24,000 bases of DNA. Source: an uncultured Candidatus Saccharibacteria bacterium (GTDB lineage Bacteria; Patescibacteriota; Minisyncoccia; Phycocordibacterales; UBA2100). The translations under genes were made by a program, and so were the position numbers. This document shows, piece after piece, positions 18,035-22,019 of this stretch; within the stretch, counting starts at the first letter, position 1; each line of letters begins with the position of its first letter. Under the pieces are notes generated by a model. It was not told where the DNA came from and ran no database searches. It saw only the letters and a list, made by a program, of their open reading frames with translations. The DNA lies in assembly GCA_964363895.1 (NCBI GenBank), contig CAYIJV010000001.1, positions 20,607-44,606 on the forward strand, given 5' to 3'.

Positions 18035-18613
18035 TCAAGAAATCTTTCTTTCCCAGTATTCTGCAGAAGCGCTCACATAATCCGCGACCCTGCGCTCTGT
18101 GGCCGCCGCAAAGCGAGTAACGAGGACCTCGCGTTCGCTTTCCGGAGCGCCATGCTTTATCCATGTTTCTACGAGTGCGATTTGGGATGGGTCGGAAAGT
18201 GCGAGGCGGCGGCCTTTGGCCGCCGCGCGCAGAATGGTGGGCCCGCCGATATCGGTCTTCTCAATGACGTCTGCGGGAGTTGCCGATGGGTCGGCTATTG
18301 TTTTTAGAAGAGGGTAGAGTGTTATATATACAAGGTCAATCGGCTCTATATTCAGGCGTTTTAGCTCTGCGAAGTCATCGGGAGTTTCAGCAAGAAGCCC
18401 TGCGTGAATTTCGCGCGAGAGTGTCACGACACGATGTCCGAGGATGGGAGGCCCCACGATCTCGGCTACATCGCGACAGGCGACCTTGTTGTCGTTCAGA
18501 TACTTTGCAGTGCCTGCAGAGCCCAAAAGTGTCCATCCATTTTCACTCAATAATTTTCCAAGCCGTATAAGCTCCTCACCTTTCTCATGCGATGCTAGGA
18601 GGGCTGTTTTCAT
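18035..18613 (-). CDS. purH: IMP cyclohydrolase, stand-alone MGS-like domain (PurH N-terminal domain homologue)
   Basis: ALLASHEKGE, GSAGTAKYL, GHRVVTLSREIHAGLL, LVYITLYP and DIGGPTILRAAAKG match the PurH IMPCH domain. At 192 aa it has no AICAR transformylase domain. Confidence 0.75.
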   Translation of the reverse strand: MKTALLASHEKGEELIRLGKLLSENGWTLLGSAGTAKYLNDNKVACRDVAEIVGPPILGHRVVTLSREIHAGLLAETPDDFAELKRLNIEPIDLVYITLYPLLKTIADPSATPADVIEKTDIGGPTILRAAAKGRRLALSDPSQIALVETWIKHGAPESEREVLVTRFAAATERRVADYVSASAEYWERKIS

Positions 18614-18658
18614 GGCCGAATTGTAGCAGGAGGATAGATTTCCCCAAAATGAAGATTT

Positions 18659-19246
18659 ATGCGATTATCTCTGTATATGAGTTCTGATACGTATGAGCAG
18701 TTGCAAGAAAAACACCGAGAGCTTGAGAATAATCTTAGAGCCGCTCGTCAGATTTCCCGCAATACCATATATCGAATCGTATTGCTTTCAGCGGGAATAG
18801 TTGGCTTTTCGGTATCCTTGTTTTCCATACCAGCCCTACAACAAAGTCTCGACTTAAACATCATAAAATATTCCTGGTACGCTTTTCTTGTCGTTATTAT
18901 TTTTGGCATACTTACACTTTTAGCGGAGGGACGCATACGTTTCGCAACTGCTTGGAAGAGTAATCAAATCAGTCTCTGGGTCGATAAATTGAGCGACTAT
19001 AGTGCTCGGCATCAGGTTTATGCAACGCTTATTGTGGCTTGGTCGCTTTTTTATCCGGCAAATCTAACTTTCAATAAAATAAAAGCAGAACAGGAAAGAG
19101 CGAAATTTGAGCAAACTGTAAATGGTCTGGTTGTGCATCGATTAGCAAGGTTAGGCTTAGCTCTTGCAGTTGTTGAGAATTTTATATTTGCAGCTTTCGT
19201 TATCGGACTTGTTCTTCTGGTGCTCTCATTTGTATTTCCCGCGTAA
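18659..19246 (+). CDS. Hypothetical integral membrane protein (about 4 TM)
   Basis: The ORF lies in the lower-GC stretch. An N-terminal charged helix is followed by hydrophobic spans (IVLLSAGIVGFSVSLFSI, AFLVVIIFGILTLL, LALAVVENFIFAAFVIGLVLLVLSF). An alternative start is at 18677. Confidence 0.5.
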   Translation: MRLSLYMSSDTYEQLQEKHRELENNLRAARQISRNTIYRIVLLSAGIVGFSVSLFSIPALQQSLDLNIIKYSWYAFLVVIIFGILTLLAEGRIRFATAWKSNQISLWVDKLSDYSARHQVYATLIVAWSLFYPANLTFNKIKAEQERAKFEQTVNGLVVHRLARLGLALAVVENFIFAAFVIGLVLLVLSFVFPA

Positions 19247-19259
19247 ATCCATATAAAAT

Positions 19260-19535
19260 ATGACCGACTCCAAAAAATCAATAGAAGAACAATATAATTT
19301 TACAGATGCTGAGAAAGACCTAGTTAGACGTTCGGCAAAGGGGAATATTATGGCCACGTACGAAGCCCAAACTCAAGCCTCAATCATATTAGCTAGAAGT
19401 ATTCAAAGGGCGGAAAGTTCAAACTCTCGTTTATCCTTTTGGCTTACAATCTTCACTGGAATTATAGCGTTGGCTGCTCTTCTTCCGTTCGTGCCCACTT
19501 TATTGATTTTTTTGGACAGCATCGTGAAGCAGTGA
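19260..19535 (+). CDS. Hypothetical small membrane-anchored protein (91 aa)
   Basis: A soluble N-terminal ~55 aa followed by a C-terminal hydrophobic span FWLTIFTGIIALAALLPFVPTLLIFL. Same strand as the upstream gene and 13 nt after it. Confidence 0.45.
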   Translation: MTDSKKSIEEQYNFTDAEKDLVRRSAKGNIMATYEAQTQASIILARSIQRAESSNSRLSFWLTIFTGIIALAALLPFVPTLLIFLDSIVKQ

Positions 19536-19583
19536 AGGCTAGTAATCCTTGCTACTTGGGTCGTCTAACGGACTATTCTGAGT

Positions 19584-19656
19584 TTACTTTGACGACGAAT
19601 CTCGTTTCAGGGTCTTGAACGCTTCCTCGACGGTCGTCATGAATTGCGCGAGGAAG
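19584..19656. repeat. Duplicated element, copy 1 (upstream of the zeta-like kinase gene)
   Basis: Collinear with 20613-20688 at a constant 1029-nt offset. Hand-counted identity is 52/65 over 19584-19648, with a 30-nt core (19619-19648) identical at 29/30. It contains CTTCCTCG...CGAGGAAG followed by ATGATG. Confidence 0.7.
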
Positions 19657-19690
19657 ATGATGGTTTGTGAGTGGGGTAGAATAGTCTTAC

Positions 19691-20389
19691 ATGAATCTTG
19701 ATGAACAAAAGATTTCCGACAATGCTTTTCAGTATGTAAAAAGTCATTCTGACGAGATAATTCGGAAATTTGCGGGTCAATCTGTTCTGGTAGCGACACC
19801 CGTCTCACTTTTCATGGCCGGTTCTCCTGGCGCTGGTAAGACGGAAGTGTCGAAAGGCTTAATGCGTCAATTTGACACGGTTCCGGTTCGCATCGACGCA
19901 GACGAGATACGCGCACTTTGCCTAGGATATACGGGTGCCAACGCGCATCTATTTCAAAAGGCTGCGACCAAGGGAGTGCATATACTATATGACTACGCAC
20001 TGCATGAAAAACTTCACCTCATTCTAGATGGAACGTTTGCGTACAGCGATTCGATTAAGAATATTCAACGATCGTTAGATTATGCAAGAAAAGCTGAATT
20101 ATGGTTTGTCTATCAGGACCCCATAAGGGCGTGGGAATTCACAAAGGCTCGTGAGGCACTTGAAGCACGCCATGTTTCAAAAGACGTGTTCATCAGGACA
20201 TTTCTGATGGCAAAAGAAAATACTAAACAAGCAAAAATGCACTTCCGTACTTCATTAACCCTCAATCTGCTTATCAAGAATATGGATAATACCGACGGGA
20301 GGATGCAACTTAATATTCAACACGACCAACTTGACCCATATATAGGACACAGCTATACTGCAGAAGATCTCGACGGGATACTCCTATGA
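19691..20389 (+). CDS. Zeta-toxin-family P-loop kinase
   Basis: Walker A MAGSPGAGKTEVSK, RIDADEIR and LILDGTF match Zeta_toxin/AAA-kinase family motifs. 232 aa. Confidence 0.7.
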   Translation: MNLDEQKISDNAFQYVKSHSDEIIRKFAGQSVLVATPVSLFMAGSPGAGKTEVSKGLMRQFDTVPVRIDADEIRALCLGYTGANAHLFQKAATKGVHILYDYALHEKLHLILDGTFAYSDSIKNIQRSLDYARKAELWFVYQDPIRAWEFTKAREALEARHVSKDVFIRTFLMAKENTKQAKMHFRTSLTLNLLIKNMDNTDGRMQLNIQHDQLDPYIGHSYTAEDLDGILL

Positions 20390-20574
20390 CAGATTTTATA
20401 TTGAAAATACTGGGTTTTGCCAAGGGGATTCCTGAGAAAAAGGACGACTTTTCGCATTTCTTTCTTGAGGCTAAGTCGAACGAAAAAGCGAAAGTCATTC
20501 GCCAAGTATTAAAGGAAGCCACAGCCGAGCAGGAAACATTGTTAAAGAAGTATCGGGAGATGGAGGCAGCTTAA
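20386..20574 (+). CDS. Hypothetical 62-aa protein translationally coupled to the zeta-like kinase (possible cognate antitoxin or partner)
   Basis: ATGA overlap at 20386-20389. Lys/Glu-rich and helical-looking. No recognised family. Confidence 0.4.
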   Translation: MTDFILKILGFAKGIPEKKDDFSHFFLEAKSNEKAKVIRQVLKEATAEQETLLKKYREMEAA

Positions 20575-20612
20575 CTTTAGGAAAACAGAGTTAGGTACTA
20601 CTTGTTTCAGGG

Positions 20613-20688
20613 TTACTTGACCGCCGAGTCTCTCTTTAGCGTTCTGGACGCTTCCTCGACGGTCATCATGAATTGCGGAGAGGAAAGG
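20613..20688. repeat. Duplicated element, copy 2 (upstream of the cytidylyltransferase gene)
   Basis: See copy 1. Core at 20648-20677. It ends in GGAGAGGAAAGG, 6 nt before the ATG at 20695. Confidence 0.7.
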
Positions 20689-20694
20689 CATGGT

Positions 20695-21147
20695 ATGCTG
20701 GCTTTCATTATGCGCGATGGCAAAAAGGTAGGCATTACGGCGGGCGCCTTCGATTTGTGCCACGCAGGGCACATGCTTATGTTTAAAGAAGCTAAGACGG
20801 TGTGTGATTACCTTATTGTTGCTCTTCACTCCGATCCCGCGATTGACAGACCCGATATTAAAAATAAGCCGATCATGTCTATCGAAGAGCGGAAAACTAT
20901 TCTTGAGAGCATCAAATACATTGATGAGATTCTTTTGTATGACACAGAAGCGGATTTATTTAAAATACTTAGCGAGAACAAACTCAATATAGATATCCGC
21001 ATTTTAGGTGCCGAATATAAAAATAAGTCATTCACCGGCCGCGATCTTCCTCTGCCGGTATATTTCAACTCCCGCGATCACGGCTATTCCACGACCGAAT
21101 TGCGGAAGAGGGTGTACGAAGCCGAGGTACGAAAGAATGGTTCCTAA
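20695..21147 (+). CDS. Cytidylyltransferase-family protein (glycerol-3-phosphate cytidylyltransferase TagD-like)
   Basis: GITAGAFDLCHAGHMLMFKEAK (HxGH motif), YLIVALHSD and GYSTTELRKRV resemble TagD. I prefer the start at 20695 (SD-like GGAGAGGAAAGG upstream); 20710 is also possible. The listed start at 20602 adds a repeat-derived extension. Confidence 0.8.
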   Translation: MLAFIMRDGKKVGITAGAFDLCHAGHMLMFKEAKTVCDYLIVALHSDPAIDRPDIKNKPIMSIEERKTILESIKYIDEILLYDTEADLFKILSENKLNIDIRILGAEYKNKSFTGRDLPLPVYFNSRDHGYSTTELRKRVYEAEVRKNGS

Positions 21148-21342
21148 ATGGCCCTGTTGTGACATGCGAATAGGAAAGTGGATAACGCACTGGCGCGCTC
21201 CATCAAGCGGTACATACTGTGGGAGTACAACCTAGGCTAAACCCTAAAGCAAATCGAAGATTTGCTCGGGTCGCCCGTCCGCCCTAGGCGGACTAGGGGG
21301 TCGAGTTTACCAGCCAATTTCTCTTCAAAATACCAAAATACT

Positions 21343-21582
21343 ATGAAAAATATGCACATGGTAAGCTGGATTCTCATCGTCGTCGGCGCTCTTAACTGGG
21401 GTCTCGTCGGTCTTGGAGGATTCCTGGGCGGTAATTGGAATGTCGTCAATTTGATTCTTGGGTCATGGCCAGCGGTTGAGGGGCTTGTCTATGTTCTTGT
21501 CGGTCTCTCGGCGGTCTACGAAGTGGTGAATCACAAGAAGGGTTGCAAGGAGTGCGGTTCTGATTCTGGTACTGCGATGTAG
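21343..21582 (+). CDS. DUF378-family small membrane protein
   Basis: MKNMHMVSWILIVVGALNWGLVGLGGF...NLV is the typical DUF378 two-TM signature. The start was moved to the ATG at 21343. Confidence 0.75.
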   Translation: MKNMHMVSWILIVVGALNWGLVGLGGFLGGNWNVVNLILGSWPAVEGLVYVLVGLSAVYEVVNHKKGCKECGSDSGTAM

Positions 21583-21604
21583 TTGTTTCCGTTTGATATA
21601 AGGG

Positions 21605-21640
21605 GGGCCGCCGCGTCAGACACGGCGGCCCGTTTGCGTT
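21605..21640 (+). terminator. Rho-independent terminator after the DUF378 gene
   Basis: GGGCCGCCG (21605-21613) pairs with CGGCGGCCC (21623-21631) and is followed by GTTTGCGTT. Confidence 0.6.
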
Positions 21641-21663
21641 AGACAATAGGGGATATGGCGCTA

Positions 21664-21743
21664 TTTACGGGGGTAGGGTAGAGGTACACCCCGTAAGATA
21701 GCGAGCTTGCGAGCTCTATCTCACGGGGTATACTTACGGGCAT
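21664..21743 (+). promoter_or_regulatory. Array of four CTNACGGGG-type motifs with alternative hairpins upstream of the SWIB gene
   Basis: Motifs are tttacggggg (21664-21673), caccccgtaag (inverted, 21687-21697), ctcacggggt (21720-21729) and cttacgggc (21733-21741). Hairpin 21665-21672/21689-21696 competes with the long hairpin 21688-21701/21716-21729. Confidence 0.45.
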
Positions 21744-21761
21744 ATTAGTAATCAATTATTT

Positions 21762-22019
21762 ATGGTTAGAAAAGCAAATCCAGCCCTATTAAAACCGATG
21801 AATCTATCTGCCGACCTTGAGGCTGTTGTAGGGAAGGGGCCTATGTCACGCGGCCAAGTCGTCAAACAGATCTGGGTGTATATCAAGAAACATAACCTTC
21901 AGAACCCGCAAAATAAGCGAAATATCTTGGCAGACGACAAGTTGAAGGTGATTTTTGGGGGGAAAGGCGAGGTTACGATGTTCGAGATGACGAAGCTCGT
22001 CTCGGGCCACCTGAAATAA
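21762..22019 (+). CDS. SWIB/MDM2 domain protein
   Basis: LSADLEAVVG...MSRGQVVKQIWVYIKKHNLQNPQNKRNILADDKLKVIFG...MFEMTKLVSGHL matches the SWIB domain consensus along its whole length. Confidence 0.8.
   Translation: MVRKANPALLKPMNLSADLEAVVGKGPMSRGQVVKQIWVYIKKHNLQNPQNKRNILADDKLKVIFGGKGEVTMFEMTKLVSGHLK

Follow-up and report, generated by a model that had tools for sequence, protein, structure and literature searches.

Genomic islands and integrative elements are found at the 3′ ends of tRNA and tmRNA genes, and CIMEs are cis-mobilizable elements that carry no integrase and are flanked by att sites. Integron arrays, another well-known arrangement, are built around an IntI-type integrase with an adjacent attI, and their cassettes are separated by imperfect palindromes of the attC type; toxin-antitoxin cassettes are common in such arrays. 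For a protein-coding target, the passage of PMC6379469 that cites Hill et al. 1989 relates that prophage e14, located at the icd gene of E. coli, supplies the 3′ end of the gene, and that a 163-bp icd′ pseudogene remains.

The locus described here consists of two diverged copies of a short element that flank a kinase gene in an uncultured groundwater CPR bacterium. Our best explanation overall, which we consider highly probable, is that the two copies are what is left of the 3′ end of an SPFH/Band_7 (stomatin-like) gene and no longer function, and that the kinase module between them was acquired horizontally. As far as the cited passage describes it, the icd′ pseudogene (icdC; e14/phage 21, E. 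coli K-12) offers a close parallel, in that foreign DNA lies inside the last codons of a conserved protein gene, the insert appears to supply a substitute 3′ end, and the displaced tail persists as an orphan, a short direct repeat whose differences are synonymous or conservative. Unlike e14/icd as portrayed there, the inserts at the present locus are cassettes of 0.1-1 kb with no integrase and no phage genes, the target gene has since been deleted so that two orphans are left, and site-specific recombination is putative. With the tRNA and tmRNA islands and the CIMEs, the locus shares a conserved gene end as landing site, direct repeats of the 3′ part that flank the insert, and the possibility of tandem accretion of several elements; however, the target here is a protein-coding SPFH gene, no cognate integrase was identified near it, and beyond a 30-nt core the repeats differ strongly. 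Features of this kind are known; what is new is the particular case, with its target gene and lineage.

A repeat search of the window, i.e., the whole 24,000-nucleotide stretch of DNA that was analyzed, confirmed that positions 19584-19648 and 20613-20677 form a 65-nt direct repeat with 52 of 65 positions identical (80%) and a spacing of 1029. The 30-nt core that the first-pass annotation had singled out is equally real: positions 19619..19648 and 20648-20677 agree at 29 of 30 nucleotides, and the core occurs exactly twice in the window, where 100 shuffles led to an expectation of zero. If a 1-nt gap is allowed, the similarity reaches ~19665 and ~20694, which is further right than had been noticed before, and the repeated unit is therefore ~85 nt long. 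The 13 differences between the two 65-nt copies are split 6/4/3 across the codon positions, a skew that is not significant. The repeat search found no inverted repeat inside the element, and neither palindromy of the core nor a dif-like symmetry was seen on inspection. Six contigs of this population, each from a different assembly of Hainich groundwater, showed the same arrangement with 99.6-100% identity across the locus, which rules out an assembly artifact. It had been proposed to look for more copies, and these were indeed plentiful in relatives of the same genus; in the genome itself (an assembly of 662 kb in 44 contigs, 93% complete), there were none beyond the two.

The relatives also revealed what the element is. 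When 151 genomes of the family were searched at the DNA level, it turned up in many members of the same genus, and when about 20 of these congeners (designated here by G numbers) were aligned with their flanks, the similarity passed the right end of the window copies, with third-position variation that followed the minus strand. The minus-strand ORF that holds the element in the congeners encodes an SPFH/Band_7 protein of ~255 amino acids (PF01145, 4.2e-38 in G068), and in ~50 same-genus genomes the element sequence is the 3′ end of this minus-strand gene, which closes with STIIFPAQFMTTVEEAFKTLKRDSSSK and the stop codon; the C-terminus of the protein in relatives reads EKNSTIIFPAQFMTTVEEAFKTLKRDSSSK, and is also given as LQLRTLQTMAEIATEKNSTIIFPAQFMTTVEEAFKTLKRDSSSK. 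Since the similarity continues into the conserved minus-strand Band_7 ORF, the element corresponds to the SPFH stop codon and the last codons before it. Relic copy 1 (19581..19665, minus strand) comprises the stop codon at 19584-19586 and 26 codons (TIIFLAQFMTTVEEAFKTLKRDSSSK), and breaks off at ~19665, at the beginning of the kinase module. It scored 82.7 bits over model positions 4-88 of R1, a sequence-only model of the SPFH tail that was run on 116 genomes of the genus and on the retrieved regions, and it agrees at 25 of 26 residues with the C-terminal end of the Band_7 protein that is intact in G068. Relic copy 2 (20610..20694, minus strand), which reads PQFMMTVEEASRTLKRDSAVK up to the stop codon and ends ~15 nt before the start of the cytidylyltransferase gene, scored 60.1 bits over model positions 4-84; it is more decayed than copy 1, and a 1-nt indel near 20677/20678 throws its upstream TIIFPA codons out of frame.

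The remainder of the SPFH gene is gone from this genome. By tblastx, the gene order in congeners was found to be an MGS-like gene (minus), a variable stretch and the SPFH gene (minus), the last of which diverges from the cytidylyltransferase (plus) and DUF378 (plus) genes; the MGS-SPFH-cytidylyltransferase synteny was seen in at least 8 congeners (G068, G084, G028, G031, G071, G100, G102 and G080). The window retains the MGS-like gene, the cytidylyltransferase and DUF378 as anchors, and lacks the SPFH body. No match to Band_7 (PF01145) was obtained anywhere in this 93% complete assembly, and the gene is present in 92 of the 115 congeners. The MGS-like domain gene (18035..18613, minus strand; Pfam MGS), for which tblastx showed synteny in G068, G084, G071 and G100, is the conserved left-hand anchor of the variable region of the relatives. 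The hypervariable stretch between this gene and the relic is occupied by two strain-specific plus-strand ORFs of 195 and 91 amino acids (18659..19535), located left of relic copy 1 and without a Pfam match, the former of which had no homolog in any of the 115 congeners. On the other side lies the cytidylyltransferase-like gene (20710..21147, plus strand; Pfam CTP_transf_like), which is the conserved right neighbor of the SPFH gene in relatives. Its nucleotide homology to G068 and the other relatives starts exactly at the ATG at 20710, and the native intergenic region between the SPFH and cytidylyltransferase genes has therefore been lost here. An earlier placement of the cytidylyltransferase start directly after GGAGAGGAAAGG is most likely mistaken, as the homology in all relatives begins at the same ATG. 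It was also considered whether copy 2 could be an in-frame N-terminal extension of the cytidylyltransferase, but this was rejected, as all relatives start at the methionine of MRDGKK/MKDGKK.

Frame-matched homology to the Band_7 C-terminus, the syntenic place, and the absence or disablement of the rest of the gene are thus found together at this locus, and the sequence comparisons leave little doubt that the element represents SPFH gene relics. Like ordinary gene remnants in reduced genomes, the relic is a truncated piece, frameshifted in copy 2, of a gene that is intact at the syntenic place in relatives; unlike them, it is duplicated, its copies are as diverged as the orthologs of different species, and its length class recurs across genomes. 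Today the element most likely does nothing. This origin bears on what had been supposed from the two copies alone. A conserved plus-strand frame is excluded, because in relatives the segment belongs to a minus-strand open frame of at least 250 codons, and it is incidental that the plus frame of copy 2 is in frame with the cytidylyltransferase. The proposal of a minus-strand peptide was correct as to strand, frame and synonymous bias, but not as to an independent gene of 18 amino acids, since the peptide is the tail of the ~255-aa protein. It could still be argued that the two 18-aa minus-strand ORFs (MTTVEEAFKTLKRDSSSK and MMTVEEASRTLKRDSAVK) were exapted from the SPFH tail and are now kept as genes by selection. 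Indeed, both are intact from ATG to stop, which also counts against our best explanation, the copy 1 peptide is identical to that of the G068 orphan tail despite 8 nucleotide differences, and the methionine is retained in all orphans. Nonetheless, the synonymous bias would be just as well accounted for if the copies had diverged within working full-length genes before they were orphaned, the stop codon is lost in the G037 orphan, and the G084 copies keep only the four residues M(T/P)TV before unrelated sequence begins. Moreover, there is no promoter consensus in or next to the element and no SD-like motif visible upstream on the minus strand, and transcription would run antisense into the ends of the preceding plus-strand genes. 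Overall, we regard the existence of such peptide genes as very improbable.

Similar considerations apply to the suggestion that the element is a plus-strand 5′ leader or regulatory RNA shared by the two downstream genes, or a promoter or operator reused for both, for which an SD-sequestering hairpin had been proposed. Both copies do lie directly upstream of plus-strand genes, CTTCCTCG of copy 1 can pair with CGAGGAAG in an arrangement that appears in the MFE fold, and in G029 and G000 a -10-like box follows within 3-12 nt after the orphan. The hairpin was, however, not borne out by covariation: across 22 homologous sequences, 55.7% of the cells pair, as compared with 58-64% in slid controls, and one of the proposed pairs never forms in any of the 22. 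Neither copy has a predicted fold that exceeds its shuffles in stability (z = -0.07 for copy 1, z = -1.58 for copy 2), and the two copies fold differently. An Rfam scan of positions 18500-22000 at E <= 1 gave no match, and a scan for promoter and terminator consensus sequences found nothing within the elements and no promoter next to them on either strand. A distance of 35 nt separates the supposed SD from the kinase ATG downstream of it, the -10 region upstream of the kinase is common to the kinase module of G108, which has no element, and the sequence in relatives is coding on the opposite strand. The purine runs that had been read as ‘SD’ are degenerate SPFH codons for I-I-F-P-A. A leader or operator function is accordingly extremely improbable, and present regulatory or coding functions, taken in total, are unlikely. 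An apparent shared riboregulator or conserved micro-peptide is thereby recognized as a pair of gene relics, and a false lead is removed. It is to be noted for annotation in general that synonymous-biased divergence between two short repeats is no proof of current gene status.

What separates the two copies is an accessory plus-strand module (19664..20574). It contains a -10-like TAGAAT (19677-19682) placed 8 nt before the kinase ATG, a Zeta_toxin-family kinase (19691-20389; Pfam Zeta_toxin, 3e-28), and a translationally coupled ORF of 62 amino acids (20386-20574) that overlaps the kinase stop codon (ATGA). The kinase had been thought to begin with the ATGATG at 19657; its start is at 19691. 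Homology to the kinase module of G108 begins at 19664 and the SPFH homology of copy 1 ends at 19665, so that the two boundaries coincide. The kinase was found in only 10 of the 115 congeners, at other genomic places, and a homolog of the 62-aa ORF accompanies it in at least four of these genomes (G108, G132, G041 and G045); because of this co-conservation, the kinase and the ORF downstream of it are taken as a genuine two-gene module. No core was detected next to the kinase modules of ten other genomes (all E > 0.2), so that the module does not always travel with the core.

Divergence of the two tails was measured by Nei-Gojobori counts of synonymous and non-synonymous differences in the minus frame. 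Copy 1 and copy 2 differ by 6.8 synonymous and 7.2 non-synonymous changes (pS 0.48, pN 0.15; pN/pS 0.31), and copy 1 and the G068 orphan by 8 synonymous and 0 non-synonymous changes. The orphan and resident tails within G068, G049 and G128 had pS values of 0.52, 0.53 and 0.92, respectively, with lower pN. In nucleotide identity, copy 2 is no closer to copy 1 (53/70) than to the tails of other species (51-52/70). Together with the synonymous bias, this means that the two copies were coding while they diverged, and that they are roughly as far apart as the orthologs of different species, which argues against recent in-place duplication as well as against long neutral decay, and fits a history in which one copy arrived from another lineage. 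The duplication would thus not have come from recent local copying. The simplest mechanism would be that the gene end was duplicated in tandem, locally and only once, in the distant past, and that both copies then decayed neutrally without any foreign DNA being involved, and it would be in keeping with the end of both window copies at the same model column (~88) and with the lack of a significant codon-position skew among their 13 differences. Neutral decay, however, predicts an excess of non-synonymous changes, which is contrary to the pN/pS of 0.31 between the copies and of 0 between copy 1 and the G068 orphan; furthermore, the insert is an accessory module that is found elsewhere in other genomes, and the inserts differ between genomes. 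We therefore consider tandem duplication improbable. As a separate observation, the 10-mer GTTTCAGGGT occurs inside copy 1 (19604-19613) and again just left of copy 2 (20603-20612), and the left flank of copy 2 (TTGTTTCAGGGTTA) matches that of the G068 orphan (TTGTTTTAGGGTTTA); these shared sequences hint at mosaic recombination among tail copies.

Truncated orphan tails were found beside unrelated small cassettes in at least six congeners. All orphans are shorter than 93 nt, out of a gene of ~780 nt, and they stop between model columns 63 and 88; the ~30-nt core is the one stretch that every congener fragment contains. In G068, the orphan is followed by ~420 nt and then the intact gene, and in G128 by ~105 nt and the intact gene. 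G049 has an orphan, a one-gene cassette with promoter-like and terminator-like sequences, and then a tail, at which the contig ends. In G084, three core-only copies lie between small cassettes upstream of the intact gene; G029 and G037 have lone orphans, the G037 fragment ending at CAT, and in G077 a contig break falls inside the tail. The cassette inserts are mutually unrelated, except for a 67-aa cassette that stands beside an orphan in both G037 and G084, and in most congeners the site looks empty, with one tail only. The best reading of these sequences is that the locus is an insertion hotspot at which related bacteria may have repeatedly gained small cassettes, and the recurrence of truncated SPFH tails beside unrelated cassettes indeed points to a defined site of this kind. 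Orphans are rare outside this genome group, which counts against our best explanation: a survey of 80 SPFH loci from JGI metagenomes yielded one weak second match only. This match was rejected as an orphan, being a 2-kb indel with a divergent SPFH paralog.

Some features of the individual loci may be recorded here. The metagenomic contigs WNFO01001485.1 and WNFN01018456.1, which are 98-99% identical, differ by a segment of ~2 kb (contig region 4786-6781 of WNFN01018456.1) located right after the SPFH stop codon, and this presence/absence segment carries a second, divergent SPFH-like gene. In G084:C85, a unit of ~50 nt (ATGTCTCTAATTCGCGCGAATA(A/G)GCGAATAG, leading to the SPFH core) is found at 600-680 and 1060-1128, on both sides of a cassette with genes for a 67-aa protein and for a small membrane peptide, and what adjoins the SPFH core there is sequence other than the SPFH tail. 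In G068:C19 (918-1478), a HicA-toxin gene (PF07927, 1.3e-07) follows a 106-aa ORF without a family match; both lie within the variable region, immediately to the left of the orphan SPFH tail. With HicA in G068 and the zeta-like kinase in the present genome, toxin-antitoxin-like modules seem to gather at the locus.

The history that we propose starts with the entry of a small cassette at the highly conserved end of the SPFH gene. The cassette would have brought along a second, foreign copy of the tail, so that the SPFH gene was kept intact, and the displaced original tail would have remained as an orphan. The body of the SPFH gene and its promoter region would then have been lost in a later deletion that reached as far as the cytidylyltransferase core promoter. 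We give about an even chance to an imported surrogate tail at an insertion hotspot, which is the best-supported account of the duplication. G068 and G128, and probably G049, the contig of which ends at this point, show the e14-like layout of orphan tail, cassette and intact gene, each with an insert unrelated to the others. In the present genome, direct repeats of the target 3′ end do flank a foreign kinase module, but neither copy is continuous with an intact gene, as one copy is in G068, G128 and probably G049. As both copies are truncated and no intact gene is left, an e14-like history requires a second event, namely a deletion. The left end of this deletion and the orphan boundary share one model column (~88), which speaks against insertion followed by deletion and would call for either a coincidence of breakpoints or a recombination-prone junction. 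No integrase or recombinase domain (PF00589 or PF00239) was found in the window, which holds only housekeeping genes by the integrase search, or on the orphan contigs of five congeners; elsewhere in the genome there is one tyrosine recombinase (contig C8), and no serine recombinase was found. It is to be noted that the orphan-bearing genomes are related, and their events may not be independent. The locus records that an uncultured groundwater CPR bacterium has lost a near-universal SPFH scaffold gene, has acquired a zeta-kinase module, and has had the region upstream of its cytidylyltransferase gene rewired.

A more specific proposal is that the core is the attachment site of mini-cassettes that have no integrase of their own and each carry a copy of the SPFH tail or core, the two window copies being attL/attR-like scars of a cassette array. 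Mobilization could occur in trans by a chromosomal recombinase, or excised circles could integrate by a RecA-mediated, Campbell-type event. Several features would agree with this proposal, namely, the short length of all orphans and the clustering of their ends, the restriction of what they share to the ~30-nt core, even in the three core-only copies of G084, and the occurrence of the same 67-aa cassette beside an orphan in G037 and G084 among inserts that are otherwise unrelated between genomes. Orphans also diverge from the resident tail as much as the tails of other species do, and the core overlies the window of highest synonymous conservation in the SPFH gene (codon-pair identity of 0.665, gene mean 0.518), although this conservation is marginal (permutation P ~0.05) and is used as a hint only. 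Against the proposal, no recombinase is linked to the cassettes, the junction positions are clustered but not identical, neither a circular form nor an empty-site polymorphism was seen, the kinase modules of other genomes have no adjacent core, and the genomes are related, so that their insertions may not have been separate events. On balance, we hold the attachment-site proposal to be possible, but tentative. An active site-specific system, in which the ~30-nt stretch in the last SPFH codons (GACGGTCGTCATGAATTGCGCGGGGAAGA) would be the landing site for integrase-less cassettes of one or two genes in this Patescibacteria genus, is possible, though less likely than not.

The arrangement resembles integron arrays in that small, mostly single-gene cassettes, either promoter-poor or self-promoted, are collected at one locus and separated by a recurring sequence that looks like a recombination site. 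It differs from integrons in that no IntI or attI adjoins the array, what recurs is part of a coding gene and not an attC hairpin, and the arrays consist of only one to three units. If the proposal were true, cassettes encoding toxin-antitoxin-like modules and small membrane proteins would move between species and stack in short arrays, as an integron- or CIME-like system of very small genomes, driven in trans by the one Xer-type recombinase or else by excised circles that recombine through homology. How ultra-small, recombinase-poor genomes gain accessory genes is poorly understood, and the locus offers a sequence-defined site for its study.

Lastly, two minor observations on the genes of the locus may be added. 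The MGS-like gene was called as two pieces (140 and 50 amino acids) in a low-coverage contig of ERZ1292621 (2345-2923), which is probably due to a sequencing frameshift or a strain variant. Many genes of the locus have a -10-like hexamer (TAGAAT, TACAAT, TATAAT, TACTAT or TATTCT) 7-8 nt before their ATG, without a Shine-Dalgarno sequence. The same layout also precedes the cassette genes of G132, G029 and G037/G084, as well as the cytidylyltransferase of relatives (G068:C19, about 2800-2820). The position of its hexamer suggests that the kinase has a -10 box of its own and a leaderless-type start, and the wider recurrence of the layout suggests that leaderless or near-leaderless mRNAs may be common in the genus; such starts would explain the rarity of Shine-Dalgarno sequences that the first-pass annotation had noticed.
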